Of a stretch of 64,000 nt of DNA, positions 55,668-64,000 are shown piece after piece. The notes under the pieces are model-generated. The model was not told the DNA's origin. It saw only the letters and a list, made by a program, of their open reading frames with translations, and searched no databases. The translations under genes were made by a program, and so were the position numbers. How positions within the stretch are numbered: the first letter of the stretch is position 1; every line of letters begins with the position of its first letter. This DNA comes from Gammaproteobacteria bacterium (GTDB lineage Bacteria > Pseudomonadota > Gammaproteobacteria > Ga0077536): the NCBI GenBank assembly GCA_963662545.2, contig CAXXLL010000002.1, positions 928,001 through 992,000 of the forward strand, written 5' to 3'.

Positions 55668-55775
55668 ACCTAACGTTGGGATAACCTGCAGATTACAGCG
55701 CACTTTGGAGATGTGAGAATACCGGCACGGCGGAAAAGTGCGCTGTATGCTGGCAGGTTGATCCCGTTGTTAGGT
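55668..55775 (-). other. attC site
   Basis: ACCTAAC...GTTAGGT, imperfect palindrome with GGATAACC/GGTTGATCC extrahelical G. Confidence 0.88.
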
Positions 55776-55835
55776 GTATTTTTGATATTCTCTATTTCCT
55801 CTTAGTAACGATCGAAAGCTACGCCGCACAAATTA

Positions 55836-56072
55836 TCAATCCTCTGGTAAGGCGTCGAATTCCTTTTTTTTATTCTCGAACCATTCATTCATCGCGTCGG
55901 GCTTTTGCATAAGGTCTCGCATTTCCTTCATCGCTTTCAGATGGGCTTCATCTTCGCGTTCATACATTTCCATTCCATGTTGTTTGCTCATTTCGGCGAT
56001 TTCGTCGTAAGAGTTGGCTTGAAATTCCGTTTCGCATGCTCCGCCTAGTTGCCTGCAATTCATTGTTTTCAT
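55836..56072 (-). CDS. DUF1059-like small protein (cassette)
   Basis: MKTMNCRQLGGAC...SKQHGMEM. Confidence 0.75.
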   Translation of the reverse strand: MKTMNCRQLGGACETEFQANSYDEIAEMSKQHGMEMYEREDEAHLKAMKEMRDLMQKPDAMNEWFENKKKEFDALPED

Positions 56073-56085
56073 TCTTCTGCCTCCT

Positions 56086-56172
56086 TAAGTTCAGCCGCGC
56101 TTGACGGCGGGTGACCGGAGCGGAAGCGCAGGGAGCTCGCGGTCAAGCGTCGGCTGCAACTTTTTGTTCGGT
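56086..56172 (-). other. Divergent attC site (R' degenerate)
   Basis: Minus strand ACCGAAC..AAGTTGCAGCCGACGCTTGAC..GTCAAGCGCGGCTGAACTT hairpin. Confidence 0.7.
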
Positions 56173-56196
56173 GAATGTTGCATTTCAGTCGTGAAT

Positions 56197-56472
56197 TCAG
56201 GTGCGTTTTTCGACGAGTTTGCCGGCTACATATTTGTGAAGCACGCTCGCCACAAGAGTTTGGTACGGAATGCCTTCTTGTAGAGCACGAGCTTGCAAAG
56301 CTCGGAGATCCCTCGATGAGAGGTGAATATTTATCCGCGTGTCTTTCTTGAACGTGGCTTGGGCATACTCTTTATGACATTCGATTTCCTTGCCGCTGCC
56401 TTTTGATTTTCTGAGCTTTCCTGCATCAAAAGCGTTAAGGATTTCCTTCTCTTTTTTATCGAGCTTACTCAT
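56197..56472 (-). CDS. CopG/RHH-type antitoxin
   Basis: KKDTRINIHLS..ALQEGIPYQTLVASVLHKY. Confidence 0.85.
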   Translation of the reverse strand: MSKLDKKEKEILNAFDAGKLRKSKGSGKEIECHKEYAQATFKKDTRINIHLSSRDLRALQARALQEGIPYQTLVASVLHKYVAGKLVEKRT

Positions 56473-56650
56473 CTGAATTCCCAACATATTGTTTCGTTGC
56501 TTTACGACTCGGAATAATTGTCTTTAGGAAGATCTCATCTTCGTCTTCGATGAACGGAACCAGATACGCGTAGTCTTCGATAATTACAACGGAGATCTTC
56601 TGCCCCGGGTAGCTTCGCTGATTCGGGTGATTGAGGATCGCGACTTCGTT
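56465..56650 (-). pseudogene. BrnT-like toxin, 5'-truncated
   Basis: HPNQRSYPGQ...YAYLVPF..IFLKTIIPSRKATK; N-terminus replaced by a half attC. Confidence 0.75.
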
Positions 56651-56654
56651 ACAA

Positions 56655-56696
56655 AAAGCGAGCCTGTAAGCGGTCAGGTTGATCCGCTGGTTAGGT
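56655..56696 (-). other. Half attC (deletion removed the R' arm)
   Basis: CTGTAAGCGGTCAGGTTGATCCGCTGGTTAGGT. Confidence 0.7.
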
Positions 56697-57080
56697 GTTC
56701 GTATCGCCATGGGTACGCACATAAGAAAAATACCAGAGAGCAGCGAGAAAAATGGCGACCATCGACAGAGTAGTTCCCCATATCATGGCGGGCATAAACC
56801 AAGCAGGGTCCGCTAATGCCTTATGCCATTTTAAACCGGAGCCCATTTGATCGCGAATGGCGGCGACGTTCGCAAGGTTTCGGTTTGTCCCAGTAATTAT
56901 AACTACGGATGAAATTGCATAGATCCAAACTACCGCTCGTGCTAATCCACTAGGAAGCGATTTTCCTGCAAAGTACCCGACAGCCAGTAGCGCCGAAGTT
57001 ACTGATATGAAATTCATAAAGTACGTCATGACAGCGCTCGTCTGCGCCAAAAACAGATCAGCTAACTCGTAATCACTCAT
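56691..57080 (-). CDS. Hypothetical membrane protein (cassette)
   Basis: Three hydrophobic helices; stop lies within ACCTAAC. Confidence 0.75.
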   Translation of the reverse strand: MSDYELADLFLAQTSAVMTYFMNFISVTSALLAVGYFAGKSLPSGLARAVVWIYAISSVVIITGTNRNLANVAAIRDQMGSGLKWHKALADPAWFMPAMIWGTTLSMVAIFLAALWYFSYVRTHGDTNT

Positions 57081-57094
57081 ACTTTTACTTGAAC

Positions 57095-57354
57095 ACCTAA
57101 CGAGGTTGTAGGAAAAGCCCCACAGACTGAAAATGTGCCAAATTCGGGGGTCTCGATACCATTACCCTAACCGAGATCGTCGCTTACAGAGCGTCGGACG
57201 AGGCCGAATTTCTGAGCGATTATTCGCAACGACTTATCCTACAACCTCAACGCTAGGATAACCGGCGTGTTACAGCAGGCTCCTTTGTGGCGAAAATGCG
57301 CAGGCGCCCCAAAGGAGCCTGCTGTAACACGTCCGGTTGATCCACTGGTTAGGT
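57095..57354 (-). other. attC site interrupted by a MITE
   Basis: ACCTAAC[147 bp]AACGCTAGGATAACC...GTTAGGT. Confidence 0.85.
57102..57248. mobile_element. MITE-like element, 147 bp
   Basis: TIRs GAGGTTGTAGGAAAAG / CTTATCCTACAACCTC; AAC on both flanks. Confidence 0.8.
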
Positions 57355-57355
57355 T

Positions 57356-57649
57356 TCATTTTTGAGGCTTCCGCCAGTAGTTCGGCTCAAGATGAAGGTG
57401 AGCAACGGCAACAATGAGAATTTCTTCGTCAGTTACTTCGTAGATTAACCCGTATTTGAATCGGCGGGTCCTGCACCGGCGGGTGTTTTCGCTGAGCGGC
57501 GCCTAAGCAATCGGGTGTCGTTCTATCCGTTTTGTCGTAGCGCGTACTTCTTCTAGAAACTCTTGACCGAGACCGTCACGCTGATCATTTAGGTACTCAA
57601 TGGCATCTCGGAGTTCTGCGCGAGCCGGATCTAGAAAGCGAACTTTCAA
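57356..57649 (-). pseudogene. RelE/ParE toxin with in-frame TAG
   Basis: MKVRFLDPARAELRDAIEY..GLGQEF..HPIA*APL..RFKYGLIY..IVAVAH; TAG at 57503-05. Confidence 0.85.
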
Positions 57650-57867
57650 GCGCCTTCCAGATTCGCAAACACTTCATCCGACGAATACGCTTGGATTTCG
57701 CCTGCACGGTAAGCGCGGAGTCGATCTTCCGCCTCCTTCGCCCACAATGCGTCAATGTTCGGGGCAGGTTTGTCGAAGCTGTTCAACAATTCCTCAACCA
57801 GGCCGACGCGCTCGTTAGGCGAAAGACCAAGCGCTTCTCGATAAAGCTTTTTTGCATTCTCAGTCAC
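57646..57867 (-). CDS. Addiction-module antitoxin
   Basis: ALGLSPNERVGLVEELLNSFD..WAKEAEDR. Confidence 0.85.
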   Translation of the reverse strand: MTENAKKLYREALGLSPNERVGLVEELLNSFDKPAPNIDALWAKEAEDRLRAYRAGEIQAYSSDEVFANLEGA

Positions 57868-58013
57868 AGGATTTCTCTTCCACGTCCGATAATATAAGTA
57901 TAGACCGGAGTCGAAATGAGACCTAACAGTTAATTAGGGAGTGTTGCACTTCACTTGGAAATCTAAGTGTCTCTACTTCGCAGCAAGGACCTTCGGACAG
58001 GGATACGACGCTC

Positions 58014-58604
58014 TCAGACAGATGCATTCTTAGTTTTGACTATCTGTGTTCCCATTAAACGATCGATGAGCCGAACAACCGGTTTGCGTAAAAACACGCC
58101 CACGATAATAGGCCCGACAAACGCGCCAAGCAGAAACCACAGGTTCGATCGAGCGTATTTGAGCGGATATATTTCGTTATTACGTACTCGATATTCAGAA
58201 AGCGATGACCAAGGCGTGTCTCCAACCATAAATACCTGGACGATCTGGCTTTCGTCGCTTTCAGGGAGTACTGAGATGGTCGCACTAGTCTCTCCTCGAC
58301 TCCAATTGCGGGAGGGCGGGTGCTCAGGCAATAAATACTGCACATTGCGGAAGTTCTCTTCGGCCAAATCGGCTCCATATCGATATACATGCGTATCGGA
58401 AGCTTCCTCACCATATTCGGCTATGAATGCGATGTACATCTGGGACGTTTCGTTCGGTTCAACGTCATCGAGGAACCACTTGGCGCTACTATAGTACGCC
58501 GTCCCCGGGCCTACACACGAGCCGATAAACAGCGCGGATAGCACGACGAGTTTTAGGCAGCCGGCAACGAATCGCTTTACGAACCCAATGACTTCTTCCG
58601 ACAT
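58014..58604 (-). CDS. Hypothetical membrane-anchored protein (cassette)
   Basis: N- and C-terminal TM segments; lies between array boundaries. Confidence 0.7.
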   Translation of the reverse strand: MSEEVIGFVKRFVAGCLKLVVLSALFIGSCVGPGTAYYSSAKWFLDDVEPNETSQMYIAFIAEYGEEASDTHVYRYGADLAEENFRNVQYLLPEHPPSRNWSRGETSATISVLPESDESQIVQVFMVGDTPWSSLSEYRVRNNEIYPLKYARSNLWFLLGAFVGPIIVGVFLRKPVVRLIDRLMGTQIVKTKNASV

Positions 58605-58656
58605 TTCTTGCTTCTCAATCACTATGTGCGTATCTGAGAGTTTGTCTGCCGGACAC

Positions 58657-59919
58657 TGGAGTTACCCAAGAACCGTAGACACGTTCATGGGATTAGGTTG
58701 TAACTCGTAGTTATCGGGGCTGAGATAGCCGAGCGCCGAGTGCCGGCGTTGGCGGTTGTAGAAGATCTCGATGTATTCAAACAGGCCGGCACGGAGTTCA
58801 TCGACCGTGCGGTAGTTCTCCGGATAGATGAGTTCGACCTTCAGGCGGCTGAAGAAGGACTCCATGACGGCGTTGTCCCAGCAGTTCCCCTTGCGGCTCA
58901 TACTCGGTTGAATACCGGAGTCCGTCAATAGTTGTTGGTATTCGTTGCCGCGGTACTGCACGCCACGGTCGGAGTGCAGCAGCAGCCCTTCAGAGATATC
59001 CCGGCGAGACACCGCCATCGTCAGTGCATCGACGATGAGCGTTTCGCGCATGTGGGGCTCAAGTGTCCAGCCGACAATCTTGCGCGAATACAGGTCCAGC
59101 ACCGCAGCGAGATAAGCCCAGGTGCGACCGACCTTGATATAGGTAATGTCAGAGACCCATTTGCGATTCGGCCCGTCGGTGGTGAAGTTCCGGTCGAGCA
59201 GGTTGTCTTTGACCTGCGTCATCGATTCGACCCGCTTCTCGTAGCGGAAGCCTTTGCCGTTCAAGGCCCGCAACTGCAGCGAACGCAGCAATTTGGCCAC
59301 ATAATTTTTGCTGCACGGCACACCGTCTTCAACCAATTCCTTCGTCAGACGCGGCGCCCCATAACGCCGTTTGAAGCGGTAATACAGATAGCTCAGTACC
59401 TGCCGCATCTGCTCACGTCGCCTGGCCTGCTCACTCAGCGGCCGCTTCAGCCAGGCATAAAAGCCCGACCGCGACACCTCTAACACCCGACACATCAGCG
59501 TCACCGGATAGGCACCCCGGTTCTCTGCGATTAAGGCGTACTTCACTTGTCGGGGTTGGCAAAGTACGCCGTCGCTTTTTTTAGGAAATCTCGCTCCTGC
59601 TCGAGCTCCGCTACCTTCCTCTTCAGGCGACGGATCTCGGTTTTCTCTTCTTTCGAATAATCTGTGCCGTCCGCCAGCTTGAACTGCTTGTTCGACAGAT
59701 TGTTGAACTGGGCGCGCCAGTTGTAGATCTGACCGGGATGGAGCCCGAGTTCTTTCGCCACCTCGGTCGCCGTACGACCGGGTTGATCAGCTAGGCGAAC
59801 CGCTTCTTGACGGAACGATTCCGGATACGACTGCGTTTTCTTCTTTCTCGGCATCGTGACACTTCCAATTGCATCTTAGTACGATGCATTAGGGTGTCTA
59901 CTTTTCGTGGGTAACTCGG
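58657..59919 (-). mobile_element. IS3 family element (orfA 59543-59854, orfB 58662-59546)
   Basis: TIRs TGGAGTTACCC / GGGTAACTCGG; WVSDITY, HSDRG and MESFF motifs; A7G slippery site. Confidence 0.92.
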
Positions 59920-59921
59920 GA

Positions 59922-60031
59922 ACCTAACGCAAAGTTAACCGGCGTGTTACAGCCAGCTCCTTTGGGGCGAAAATGCGGAGCCGCCCCAAAGGAGCTGGCT
60001 GTAACACGTCCGGTTCAACGCCTTGTTAGAG
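59922..60031 (-). other. attC site
   Basis: ACCTAAC...GTTAGAG with long internal hairpin. Confidence 0.9.
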
Positions 60032-60263
60032 GGCGCTTATATCGCTCGACGTACGAATCGAGAAGACGCCGAATCATTTTCTGATAAGGCGTGTTGCGTC
60101 TCTCGGCCTCGCCTTTGAAGAAATCGACGCTCGATTTACTTAACGAGATCGTGACCTTAACGGTCTCATCTCGGAAAGCAAGTTCGTCTGGCGAGGGCAA
60201 GAAGTCCTCGATGACTTCGATGTCCCCTATAGGTTCATCGGTGTACTTTATTTTCGCGCTCAT
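60015..60263 (-). CDS. BrnA/CopG-like antitoxin
   Basis: DFLPSPDEL..VKVTISLSKSSVDFFK..PYQKMIRRLLD. Confidence 0.85.
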   Translation of the reverse strand: MSAKIKYTDEPIGDIEVIEDFLPSPDELAFRDETVKVTISLSKSSVDFFKGEAERRNTPYQKMIRRLLDSYVERYKRPLTRR

Positions 60264-60528
60264 AGACTCTCTTACCTTTTCTCCAATATCCGGCGCCAAA
60301 TATTCGGATTACGTTTCGGCGATAGGTGAACCTAACCGTCAAAATCCCTTCACCGGCCTCGCCGAAACAGTAATAACGCTCTTCGGTTTCGCTGCTATGC
60401 GCTAAATCCTTGGCGATGACTCGTTTCGGATCGGCGAATGCGTATTGAGCTTCGGCAAAGAAAATACGGTGTTTCGCTTGATTCTCGGCGTCCTTTTCCG
60501 AGTCCCACTCAAAGCTTTCCTTGCTCAT
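60235..60528 (-). CDS. brnT: BrnT family toxin
   Basis: FEWDSEKDAENQAKHRI..FADP..HSSETEERY..IRIFGA. Confidence 0.88.
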   Translation of the reverse strand: MSKESFEWDSEKDAENQAKHRIFFAEAQYAFADPKRVIAKDLAHSSETEERYYCFGEAGEGILTVRFTYRRNVIRIFGAGYWRKGKRVYERENKVHR

Positions 60529-60599
60529 AGGGTAAGTATAGAACTGATATGGCTATATCGCCATATGAATATGTGGCGCAGAGATGTCTGGTTTCAGCC

Positions 60600-60709
60600 C
60601 TCTAACGCTAGGATAACCTGCGCGTTACAGCGCGCTTCTTTGGAGCGAAAATGCGAAGCCGTTTCAAAGAAGCGCGCTGTAACACGTCAGGTTGATCCTT
60701 TTGTTAGGC
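60600..60709 (-). other. attC site
   Basis: CTCTAAC...GTTAGGC; R boxes are complementary to those of neighbouring attCs. Confidence 0.92.
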
Positions 60710-60719
60710 GGCGCGTACA

Positions 60720-61238
60720 TTAATCTTTTCGTGTGTCCAGAATAGGCATCATATCGATCAGCGAAGGTAGGTCTGGTTCTTCACGAAGATGCCTCTCCAA
60801 TTCGAGCCCAACTTCCTTATCTACTACTTGGATTACTTGAGGCCAGACTTTTCTTCCACCGGGGGTCCTTATAAAGGCTCCCACATATGCCAGCCATGTA
60901 GTGTAGTCCACCTCACTCAATAACCCTTGTTTATGCAAGCTTAGTACGTTCTGTAGTTGTACGACATGCTCTATGAGTAGAAATGTAAATCGTGTCTTTT
61001 CTATCCGATCGAGTTCATCGAAGGATGACAGTCCGCGAGCGTGTACATCAGCCACTTCGCTATTTGTTATCGTAGGATTAACGATACGGTCTCGCGCCCC
61101 GTCCAGCATATTTTGTACCGAAGCCGCTTGAGTAGCACGAGTATTTCCCCGTACTTGAATGGCCAGATACACAACGGATATGACGACTGCTACAGCACTG
61201 ATAATTTCGCCAATTGCCGCCGCTGAATCCAAATTCAT
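60720..61238 (-). CDS. Hypothetical cassette protein, N-terminal TM family
   Basis: AIGEIISAVAVVISVVYLAIQVRGNT...TPGGRKVW. Confidence 0.8.
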   Translation of the reverse strand: MNLDSAAAIGEIISAVAVVISVVYLAIQVRGNTRATQAASVQNMLDGARDRIVNPTITNSEVADVHARGLSSFDELDRIEKTRFTFLLIEHVVQLQNVLSLHKQGLLSEVDYTTWLAYVGAFIRTPGGRKVWPQVIQVVDKEVGLELERHLREEPDLPSLIDMMPILDTRKD

Positions 61239-61256
61239 TCCGTGTCTTCCCGTGCC

Positions 61257-61366
61257 GCCTAACGCCAGGATAACCTGCGTGTTACAGCGCGCTTCTTTCG
61301 GGCGAAAATGCGTAGCCGACCTAAAGAAGCGCGCTGTAACACGTCAGGTTGATCCGTTTGTTAGGT
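61257..61366 (-). other. attC site
   Basis: GCCTAAC...GTTAGGT, near-identical to the 60600 site. Confidence 0.92.
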
Positions 61367-61375
61367 GAATGTTGC

Positions 61376-62697
61376 GGTACGGACCGGGTAGATAGGTAAC
61401 ATTATAGTCAAGGTACATGGGTGACAGATCAATGGTATTAGGTTCCTCAAAGGAGGAGTCCGATGCCCTGGAGAGAAACGTCACCAATGAACGAAAAAAC
61501 GCAATTCATCGCAGACTATCTGCGCGACCTGTTGACAGTTACCGAGCTGTGCGAACATTACGGCATCAGTCGCAAGACTGGCTACAAATGGATTGATCGG
61601 TATCTAAGCGAAGGTCCGGCGGGTTTAGAGGAACGCACACGGCGGCCTAGAACTTGCCCGCATAAAACGCCGGCGCGGCTCGAGCGCCTGATCATCGATG
61701 CGCGACAACGTCATCCGACTTGGGGCGCTCGTAAATTGCGGACGTTTCTATCGCGGAAGCACCCGCGAGAGCCGTGGCCAACACGGACAACCATTCATGA
61801 CATCCTAATCCGTGAAGGATTCATCCGGACACCGCGGCGCTCACGCAAACTCGGGCATCCGGGAAAACCTGAAACCCGAATGAATGCACCCAACCAAACC
61901 TGGGGCGCCGACTTCAAAGGGCATTTCAAGACCGAAGACGGGCGGTATTGTTACCCGTTGACCGTCACCGATGGCTTTAGTCGATACCTCATCGGATGCC
62001 AGTCATTACTCACGACCGCCGTTGAACCATCGAAGGCGGTGTTCACCCGCTTATTCAAAGAATACGGACTGCCAGAACGCATCCGTACCGACAACGGCGT
62101 CCCCTTCGCGACGAACACGCTCGGTCGATTATCAACGCTGTCTGCCTGGTGGATCAGGCTTGGTATTTATCCCGAGCTCATCGAACCCGGAAAGCCTCAA
62201 CAAAATGGCCGACACGAACGGATGCACCGAACCTTAAAGGCGGAGACGACTCGACCTCCGGCCGGGGACTATCGCGCGCAACAGAAACGATTTAATCGGT
62301 TCCAGATTGAATTCAATGAAGAACGCCCTCATGAAGCGCTCGACATGTTCACACCTGCCGACTTCTACGAATTTTCTGCCAAAGAAATGCCTAGCAAAAT
62401 CCCGCCGCTCGAATATCCTGACCGTTTCATCAAGCGCTTCGTCAGTGCCAACGGTGGCATCCGATGGCATTCCACCCATGTGCCTGTCTCAATCGCGTGT
62501 GCCGGTGAGTACATAGGATTAGAGGAAATCGACTGTGGTGTTTGGAACGTCTATTTCGGAACGCTTAAGCTCGGCCGAATGATTGAAAAATACAATCGGA
62601 TCGAAGATGCTTACGGCCGACTAAAACGACATTATCGATAACAAAAGTGTTACCCATCTACCTTGGCACTTTTGTTACCTTTCTCCCGGTCCGCTCA
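61376..62697 (+). mobile_element. IS481 family element (transposase 61463-62641)
   Basis: MPWRETS, ISRKTGYKW, WGADFKG, RTDNG and QNGRHER motifs; long imperfect TIRs (CGGACCGGG..GGTAACA). Confidence 0.92.
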
Positions 62698-62926
62698 TTT
62701 GCATCCGGTTCGCATAGTCACGACCAGATGTTGGTGGGGGTAGCGGCTTACCATCCTGTTCGTAGAGTTCAATAGCTTCCTCTACGATTCGACACAATTC
62801 TTCAAAGACTTCTTTTTCGTTTGCTCCGTGACAACCGCCCAACACAAGTCCAGGGGCACTGCCGACATAACACTCGTCTTCGTCAGACCACTCAACAATT
62901 TTCGCGTAACGAGCACTTCCTTTCAT
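62675..62926 (-). CDS. hicB: HicB family antitoxin (C-terminus altered by IS481)
   Basis: VEWSDEDECYVGSAPGL..CHG..GKPLPPP. Confidence 0.8.
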   Translation of the reverse strand: MKGSARYAKIVEWSDEDECYVGSAPGLVLGGCHGANEKEVFEELCRIVEEAIELYEQDGKPLPPPTSGRDYANRMQMSGPGER

Positions 62927-63120
62927 TTCTTTATCTCCGCGAGCACCTTTTGGACTGCTCGAATCTGATATTCTTTTGCGTCGTCTCCAAGTTTGCCCGA
63001 AATCGTTATGGGATTCGATATATTCGGATGCACAAAGTTTCGATGACTTCCCTTTCCGCCTCGATTCTTAAAGCCTCCGCGCTCCAAGTCGGCAATTAGC
63101 TCTCGGATCTTGGGAGGCAT
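62923..63120 (-). CDS. hicA: HicA family toxin
   Basis: GGKGSHRNFVHP..ITISG..DAKEYQ. Confidence 0.88.
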   Translation of the reverse strand: MPPKIRELIADLERGGFKNRGGKGSHRNFVHPNISNPITISGKLGDDAKEYQIRAVQKVLAEIKK

Positions 63121-63130
63121 TCTGTGTGGC

Positions 63131-63240
63131 GCCTAACGCTAGGATAACCTGCGTGTTACAGCGCGCTTATTTGGAGCGAAAATGCGAAGCCGGTTCAAAG
63201 AAGCGCGCTGTAACACGTCCGGTTGATCCATTGGTTAGGT
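63131..63240 (-). other. attC site
   Basis: GCCTAAC...GTTAGGT, same family. Confidence 0.92.
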
Positions 63241-63699
63241 GGCTGTTTTCTCAAGGTGTTGGTCAACAAATTGCGTAAAGGCATCGCTGAATCTCCATTT
63301 CTGTGCCGACCACCACTTCCGTGCGCCAATGCCTTCGTACGTCTTTAGCGCGCTTTCACGGTAGCCCTCCCATTCTTGACGGGGAAACTTGCCGCTCGAA
63401 GCGGTATAAAACATATATTGAACGGATCGCGACCATGCCCACATGGCGATGTTGAATCTCGCGCGCTCTGCTTCGCTCAATTCCTCATCCGCGATACCCC
63501 TTTCCCACAGTAGCGGAAGATCTGGCTCCGCCATTAAAGAGCAGAGAAAATCTCTCGAAAGCTGTATAGAAAACGAGAAATTCGCGTCGTTCTGCGCGGC
63601 CGTGTTTCGCCTTAGTTCTACGACGAGATATAGGAGGGAAATAACGACGCAGATTACGCCGGCCCCTTCTACCAATACGCCGATGGCTTCCCAATTCAT
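63235..63699 (-). CDS. Hypothetical cassette protein, N-terminal TM family
   Basis: MNWEAIGVLVEGAGVICVVISLLYLVVELRRNT...GARKWW; stop lies within ACCTAAC. Confidence 0.8.
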   Translation of the reverse strand: MNWEAIGVLVEGAGVICVVISLLYLVVELRRNTAAQNDANFSFSIQLSRDFLCSLMAEPDLPLLWERGIADEELSEAERARFNIAMWAWSRSVQYMFYTASSGKFPRQEWEGYRESALKTYEGIGARKWWSAQKWRFSDAFTQFVDQHLEKTAT

Positions 63700-63714
63700 C
63701 GATTTACTCTGGCC

Positions 63715-63824
63715 ACCTAACGCCAGGATAACCTGCGTGTTACAGCGCGCTTTTTTTGGGCGAAAATGCGGAGCCGACCTAAAGAAGCGCGCTGTAGCAC
63801 GTCAGTTTGATCCGTTTGTTAGGT
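63715..63824 (-). other. attC site
   Basis: ACCTAAC...GTTAGGT, same family; the next cassette is cut by the window edge. Confidence 0.92.
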
Positions 63825-64000
63825 TGCGGGTTCATTTCGACGCCGATAACTTGTTTCTGGTTTGATTTCGTCAAGAAGGATACCAGAGCGAAACCTCCTT
63901 ACAATCGAATAAGATTTCGGCTTTTTAGGGGCACGAATTGCCTCGCGATCCGAAGACACCATAGCGGCAGTGAATTCCCCCGACTACCTTCCCGGTAGTC

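Follow-up and report, generated by a model that had tools for sequence, protein, structure and literature searches.

A 147-bp MITE at the Crossover Triplet of Integron attC Sites and Its Probable IS1182-Family Parents

The integron array and the interrupted attC site

The DNA analysed here, referred to as the window, is a stretch of 64,000 nucleotides that corresponds to C2:928001-992000 of genome G000. A chromosomal integron cassette array on the minus strand (55675..64000) occupies its right-hand end and continues beyond it to an intI gene at C2:996723-997664, ~4.7 kb past the end of the window (462 bits vs. a cut-off of 265). A second intI gene that is also above the curated cut-off is present on contig C3. 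Within the array, attC sites of one type lie at ~55675, 57252, 59929, 60607, 61264, 63138, and 63722. A search of the genome with a 24-nt attC word, allowing up to 6 mismatches, returned 53 places, which on recounting comprise 42 uninterrupted attC sites (YYTAAC-GCTAGG), 4 sites interrupted by a MITE, and 7 degenerate or chance matches.

One of the interrupted sites lies in the window. Its R' core (57095..57101, GTTAGGT on the minus strand) is severed by the MITE from the rest of the site (57249..57353, minus strand), which consists of L', L'', the central 27-nt arms (57266-57292/57305-57331), and the R'' core (57347-57353). Its cores, ACCTAAC...GTTAGGT, together with the imperfect palindrome (fold z-score of -10.5) and the position within an array that has an intI gene, identify 57095-57101 plus 57249-57353 as an integron attC. 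An extra base in one of the L boxes reportedly marks L''. In this site the extra base is located in the 57333-57340 arm, and since the cassette ORFs are also on the minus strand, the minus strand of the window is the attC top strand. Consequently, the core that has been split, as GTT|AGGT on the top strand, is R', and the triplet that has been duplicated is the GTT of GTTRRRY. Integron crossover takes place between the first and second base of this core (PMC8876359).

The cassettes on either side are both encoded on the minus strand. The ATG of the downstream ORF (56691..57080; 129 aa, no Pfam match) is located 21 nt past the R' core. The upstream cassette (57359..57867) is of the toxin-antitoxin type and contains an intact antitoxin gene of the Unstab_antitox type (57646..57867) and a ParE-like toxin gene that is interrupted by a single in-frame stop (57359..57649); both halves of the latter match the ParE_toxin profile slightly under its cut-off.

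The MITE itself is 147 bp long (57102..57248, plus strand; match to the family profile, E = 2.4e-46). As written, it is in the orientation common to all members of the family, which is that of the attC bottom strand. Its left terminal inverted repeat (57102..57117, plus strand, 16 nt) is GAGGTTGTAGGAAAAG, a word that also ends the full-length IS1182-type elements described below, and its right repeat (57233..57248, minus strand, 16 nt) has the reverse complement GAGGTTGTAGGATAAG. The two arms are complementary at 15 of 16 positions and are separated by 115 nt. A degenerate version of the repeat word occurs exactly twice in the 64-kb window (57102-57117 and 57233-57248), compared with a chance expectation of ~0.38 at up to 3 mismatches. 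The element is flanked by two copies of AAC, one at 57099..57101 (plus strand), which the top strand reads as the GTT of the R' core, and one at 57249..57251 (plus strand). When the MITE and one AAC are excised in silico, the sequence becomes ACCTAAC-GCTAGGATAACC, the junction shared by the genome's 42 paralogous attC sites that are uninterrupted. Thus, the first-pass annotation of a 147-bp element with 16-bp terminal inverted repeats, placed in the R' box with AAC/GTT on both sides, is confirmed both by the coordinates and by the uninterrupted paralogous sites.

The MITE contains no transposase gene; an ATG-led frame of ~44 codons, read by eye, is closed by a stop in the copy at C2:432892. 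It is a plain inverted repeat without an AAC...GTT core pair of its own, such as an integron cassette has, and its terminal repeats are kept across 121 aligned copies among the matches listed. The predicted fold of the bottom strand shows the MITE branching off to the side between the R box and the remainder of the host attC, which creates a three-way junction. An internal hairpin (profile positions 45-49/61-65) contains many G-U pairs on the bottom strand. An outward promoter was considered and rejected: there is no σ70-like site in 56900-57500, and a TATAAT-like hexamer of the family consensus reaches 5/6 in only 32 of 121 copies among the matches listed and does not do so in the window's copies. 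A structured RNA was likewise rejected, as the only Rfam matches are miRNA-like, below threshold, and confined to the attC hairpin. A group II intron search found no match in 56950-57450 at E values up to 1. In public sequencing data, contigs of runs X3, X5, and X7 extend across the left junction by 35 nt, and thus the insertion is present there; the RNA runs cover almost none of the stretch. No public-run contig joins across the MITE in the manner of an empty site; contigs of this kind cannot show absence.

Copies of the element and the site that they occupy

A BLAST search of the window's genome reveals five copies of the MITE (100, 98, 80, 77, and 74% identity). In each of the five, YAAC precedes the left repeat and AACG follows the right one, and the orientation relative to the site is always the same. 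Four of the five occupy 4 of the 46 attC sites of the main type, while the fifth (C3:1843k) sits at the base of an 81-nt attC-like hairpin (-27.9 kcal/mol) in which AAC pairs with GTT. The pair of copies that are 98% identical (C2:985102 and C2:433581) have different flanking sequences on both sides. The word CTAACG occurs 845 times in this genome; nevertheless, 4/4 of the copies having that word are found in the 46 main-type attC sites. Thus, the word alone cannot explain the placement.

Some of these copies have neighbors of their own. At C2:432892-433727 two copies (77% mutual identity) lie in adjacent attC sites 689 bp apart, within a small attC cluster that is far from either intI gene. 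The attC bearing the copy at C3:1949649 carries an additional insertion of ~90 bp in its L'' box (C3:1949545-1949633), which is bounded by an 11-nt direct duplication (CTAGGATAACC) and is unique in the genome. A contig of run X12 contains a junction like that of this insertion, as a loose end at window position 57263.

No cognate transposase with matching ends was found in the window's genome. The best transposase match, which is 28-29% identical, belongs to a 1.79-kb multi-copy element whose ends differ from those of the MITE. This IS1182/IS5-like element is present in at least 15 copies that are ~98% identical, encodes a 487-aa transposase, and is located at C2:680-715 kb, C2:2575-2586 kb, C3:888-918 kb, and elsewhere in G000. 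Given the lack of a cognate transposase, the five MITE copies are now orphans, either moved earlier by an element that was lost or transient, or brought in with cassettes.

The same genome harbors a second MITE family of seven copies, with an interior homologous to that of the attC MITE (profile E values of 1e-12 to 1e-19). Five are on contig C2 (C2:76188-76338, C2:76814-76964, C2:445141-445290, C2:737836-737986, and C2:1609215-1609365), and two are on contig C3 (C3:2555798-2555947 and C3:2557693-2557834). Their ends (...TGTTGAAAAAGTC) differ from those of the attC MITE and their flanks are CTA|...|TAG, as if TA had been duplicated within CTAG; several of the right flanks are repeated sequences themselves. 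The two families therefore have a common interior together with differing ends and target. In addition, ~12 places in G000 (for example, C2:392143, C2:1034180, and C3:503666) contain short palindromes, CAGGCTGTTGAAAAACTCGTTTTTCGACAGCCTG, after TTAG, which resemble two IS5/IS1182-type repeat ends placed back to back.

Outside this genome, one of 60 relatives (G017, from another genus of the same family) has a copy of the MITE with 73% identity, which occupies the same triplet but of a shorter, unrelated attC. When genome contigs were scanned for the 16-nt repeat alone, most of the 120 loci obtained were chance matches, and the true relatives were then selected from them by repeat-pair searches and by a profile built from six known copies, with flanks excluded. 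The profile search identifies true MITEs in metagenome-assembled genomes (MAGs) of Binatia, Rhodocyclaceae, Porticoccaceae, and Rhizobacter and a partial copy in Chiayiivirga; the MAG copies all have YTAAC|...|AACG junctions. Further short pairs with the terminal repeat of the MITE are present at L023 2001-2167 (Marinobacter oulmenensis, 167 bp), L064 1871-2016 (146 bp), and L072 1753-1870 (118 bp). Their interiors do not match the MITE profile, and they may be other miniature derivatives of the IS lineage.

Metagenomes were scanned with a pattern that consisted of the two repeat ends only and was thus blind to the flanks, yielding at least 123 loci. Among the matches listed, the profile hit 122 of 123 loci; 3 are partial, and at least 118 are distinct full copies, whose lengths cluster at 137, 147, and 158-159 bp. 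AAC is present on the left in 110 of the listed copies, on the right in 108, and on both sides in 101 of the 117 that could be evaluated; the 16 exceptions mostly have a one-base change in one triplet. All 118 listed copies are in one orientation relative to the site, when orientation is assigned from the interior sequence alone. Ten of the listed pairs of MITEs that are at least 95% identical differ in both flanks, and thus the MITE moves independently of the sequences on either side. Taken together, these copies and the full-length elements below make up a family that is apparently undescribed and widespread and that homes to one spot in attC.

Alignment of 111 distinct flanks among the matches listed gives a target consensus of C (0.90), T (0.90), A (0.98), A (0.97), C (0.97) | G (0.87). 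Downstream of this CTAAC|G there is a weak T.AGCGGCG signal in the same set of listed flanks, corresponding to the L box. The hairpin character of the sites was assessed by a rough test, in which AAC must pair with a downstream GTT and the number of basal-stem pairs must reach a threshold, with shuffled flanks as the control. When 16 or more basal pairs are required, 57 of the 106 real sites among the matches listed pass vs. 21 of 530 shuffled ones, leaving 49 of the 106 that fail; at a threshold of at least 14, the numbers are 66 of 106 and 45 of 530. A stricter test, which looked for the reverse complement of the left 7-mer within 200 nt and was passed by 39 of 107 listed sites, has been superseded by these fold-based tests with shuffled controls.

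The arm that is used can be judged in two other, likewise rough, ways. Among the 66 listed sites that fold well, the 3' arm is longer in 48, the 5' arm is longer in 13, and the arms are equal in 5; the asymmetry of the 48 is that of the window's own site. In 88 listed sites with sufficient left flank, an ORF starting at the site and reading away from it is clearly longer in 54, an ORF reading into the site is longer in 16, and 18 are undecided. Taken together, the hairpin, arm, and flank-ORF tests favor the R' end as the usual target, without establishing it for each copy. In sites read by eye, a G after AAC is usual at R' but not at R'', which would explain the use of one arm.

Full-length insertion sequences, the proposed mechanism, and its rivals

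Elements with the same ends that do encode a transposase are found in other genomes. A repeat-pair search identified a 1796-bp element with the ends of the MITE in a Rhodocyclales MAG (L015 221-2016), where an attC flanks it with CGTT on one side and GTTAGGG on the other. The 508-aa protein that it encodes matches DUF772, DDE_Tnp_1, and DDE_Tnp_1_6, all above their Pfam cut-offs. The NCBIfam model for IS1182, NF033551, aligns from end to end with this protein and two related transposases at 263.1, 268.5, and 274.5 bits, so that one exceeds the model's cut-off of 270 bits and two are slightly below it. A homologue with 86% identity has been named "IS1182 family transposase" by NCBI. The full-length elements are 1727-1839 bp long with terminal repeats of 15-16 nt, a length and repeat structure typical of the IS1182 family. 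Homologues of the transposase (41-68% identity) are present in one of the four other MITE-bearing MAGs (that of Porticoccaceae, in several copies), in 14 genomes out of 400 sampled from the window's class, and in three records of a plasmid collection, including Pseudoalteromonas piscicida NZ_CP074588.1. A candidate at L040, a repeat pair of 1747 bp, was rejected as a chance match, because a 650-aa ORF runs across the repeat.

Both ends are in view in 14 full-length copies (L015, L265, L271, L272, L275, L277, L278, L279, L280, L281, L283, L284, L285, and L287), and 14 of 14 are bounded on either side by AAC (GTT when read on the opposite strand); for L278 and L284, the sequence on one side is limited to 3 nt. 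Copies from the Porticoccaceae MAG, which carries a MITE as well, and from P. piscicida NZ_CP074588.1 are among them. These counts leave out L274, L276, and L286, which come from two unpublished genomes. In L269, a truncated copy, ATC takes the place of AAC at one end. As read from coordinates, the transposase gene is co-oriented with the cassettes in 13 of the 14, L015 being the exception. The orientation of the MITE is strict while that of the IS is 13/14, and the orientation bias may reflect either an asymmetric reading of the target or selection.

The anatomy of the MITE, its family of copies with a fixed target, orientation, and duplication, and the full-length elements with the same ends and target argue strongly that the element in the window is a non-autonomous MITE of an IS1182-family lineage, which inserts specifically into attC and is probably moved in trans by a DDE transposase. 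The transposase responsible is likely to be that of the full-length elements. A simple origin of the MITE by internal deletion of such an IS can be rejected, as there is no similarity past the terminal repeat. Since its interior does not come from the ends of a full-length element, what connects the MITE to the IS is the 16-bp ends together with the target and the duplication. In the proposed mechanism, the transposase, supplied in trans, would bind the 16-bp terminal repeats and insert the element beside the AAC (bottom strand) or GTT (top strand) of the R' core, within CTAAC|G at the foot of the attC palindrome. Cleavage of the two strands with a 3-base stagger would then duplicate AAC. Classical transposition of this kind is the most economical reading of the insertions. 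The choice of target would depend both on the CTAACG word and on the stem-loop-forming character of attC; the word is too short to account for the observed specificity, and so we infer that the palindromic stem-loop nature of the site contributes, in keeping with the inverted-repeat targets reported for IS1272, another IS1182-family member (PMC5678879).

The first-pass annotation had offered two explanations of the element. One was a non-autonomous, IS1182/IS5-like element that targets attC, a suggestion that is supported by autonomous IS1182-type elements with the same ends, target, and AAC duplication in other genomes. A transposase gene within the same terminal repeats, which it had suggested looking for, is present in those genomes but was not found in the window's own. 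The pattern that it had set against its proposal, namely further copies scattered over non-attC sites with duplications of varying sequence, is not what the other copies show, either in the genome or in metagenomes. Its other explanation was a gene-less hairpin, that is, a cassette without an ORF, which IntI would integrate and excise at G|TT, so that the GTTs are crossover scars. This is attractive in that IntI recombination would also leave GTT on both sides, all copies share the crossover triplet and a single orientation, which is what IntI would be expected to produce, and the genome has two intI genes and no cognate transposase. However, the ends of the MITE form a plain inverted repeat, which is a side branch of the host attC in the fold, and without a core pair of its own the MITE does not provide the two folded sites needed for an IntI synapse. 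Furthermore, the same ends, target, and triplet flank elements of 1.7-1.8 kb with their own DDE transposase, and the sequence of the terminal repeat is conserved across phyla, whereas attC is conserved in structure rather than in sequence. The explanation by IntI must therefore be considered improbable and was not upheld.

It is equally improbable that the transposase hits any CTAACG-like word, or inserts nearly at random, and that the copies in attC are simply survivors on neutral cassette boundaries that have been spread by cassette exchange. Such a process would fit with a strongly conserved target of only ~six bases and with one pair of contigs, discussed below, in which the MITE travels with a cassette. 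It is at odds with the concentration of 4/4 CTAACG copies in 46 main-type attC sites when the genome offers 845 such words, and with the 118 listed metagenome copies, none of which has a clearly non-attC context and whose deviations are mostly single-base changes in one AAC. In addition, the ten nearly identical MITE pairs among the matches listed are in unrelated sites of the same kind. Finally, the 147 bp could be imagined as a native, non-mobile part of an unusually long attC variant, given that its predicted fold makes it a branch of the attC hairpin, but the 42 paralogous attC sites that lack it are joined exactly at one AAC and other copies reside in unrelated attC types in other phyla, making a native origin extremely improbable.

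The attC that the MITE interrupts may still be used by the integron. Two contigs, L188 and L229, agree exactly over a 159-bp MITE, the attC body, and at least 300 nt of the upstream cassette, but from the outer CCTAAC onwards their sequences are wholly different. This arrangement is that expected of recombination at the outer G|TT of a MITE-bearing attC and hints at such an event; other rearrangements could also give rise to it, and it comes from one pair. It is thus possible, but only as a tentative suggestion that we consider doubtful, that MITE-bearing attC sites still recombine via IntI, and that the transposon, either the MITE or the full IS, travels within mobile cassettes or at their head. 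In that case the GAGG end of the MITE, following GTT, would rebuild a core-like GTTGAGG beside the attC body, and the folding strand would still close the R box around the element as a three-way junction. If true, the lineage would be a transposon that uses the integron as a vehicle between genomes and phyla, which would explain the orphan copies in genomes without the transposase.

Significance and comparison with known systems

The family is abundant in environmental metagenomes and occurs across several phyla, and it would consist of classical DDE insertion sequences and their miniatures that hit the crossover triplet. The insertions sit exactly where cassettes are cut and joined, and consequently they may block, bias, or hitch-hike on cassette exchange. 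They will also disturb the detection of attC by programs that expect intact sites. In addition, the system provides a tractable case of a DDE transposase that would read a short word plus a structured target with strict orientation.

Several known elements share some of these features. Correia elements are bacterial MITEs that are small and non-autonomous, with terminal repeats and short duplications, and IS1397 and ISKpn1 home to the repeated palindromes of REP/BIME; both groups differ from the lineage described here in family and in target. Members of the IS1202 family (relatives of ISAjo2) are transposase-coding insertion sequences that insert in one orientation, at a fixed distance inside the dif/pdif sites of tyrosine recombinases (PMC10132070). 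In cassette data from plant-associated sources, 49% of transposases are assigned to the IS5 family, a figure given in PMC11089894 without an analysis of targets.

The parent elements resemble the IS1182 family, which includes IS1272 of Staphylococcus, in transposase architecture, and their transposases score close to the cut-off of the family model, on either side of it. The three newly inserted copies of IS1272 were all located in inverted-repeat structures (PMC5678879). These targets are varied, with no reported target duplication. In contrast, the lineage here uses one class of site, at one position, with a constant 3-bp duplication.

Two kinds of elements are described as inserting into attC itself. 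The IS1111-attC group (ISPa21, ISPst6, and ISKpn4) is, like the present lineage, site- and orientation-specific (PMC3001079, PMC11187229). However, its DEDD transposase is guided by a seekRNA, and the elements have subterminal repeats and a circular intermediate (PMC11187229). The lineage here instead combines a DDE transposase with terminal repeats and a 3-bp duplication, and it lacks the DEDD/seekRNA character of that group. To our knowledge, IS1111 elements make no target duplication.

The group IIC-attC introns, such as S.ma.I2, are also attC-specific, insert in one orientation, and can affect the expression of the next cassette (PMC3001079). They are retroelements, composed of a ribozyme and a reverse transcriptase, that insert into the bottom strand and have an outward promoter; the MITE is only 147 bp, with no group II intron signal and no conserved promoter. 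Both the IS1111-attC elements and these introns are positioned near the 5' end of attC and are antisense to the cassettes (PMC3001079), while the lineage here is found at the 3' (R') crossover triplet, with the IS gene mostly sense to the cassettes. Thus, the initial supposition that the known attC-targeting elements differ in kind from the one in the window is borne out by the descriptions in these sources (PMC3001079, PMC11187229). The openly searchable full-text literature contains no description of an IS1182-type or other DDE-type element, or of a MITE, that targets attC. To the IS1111-attC group and the group II introns, the only attC-targeting elements described there, the present lineage would therefore add a third kind, which works differently from either.
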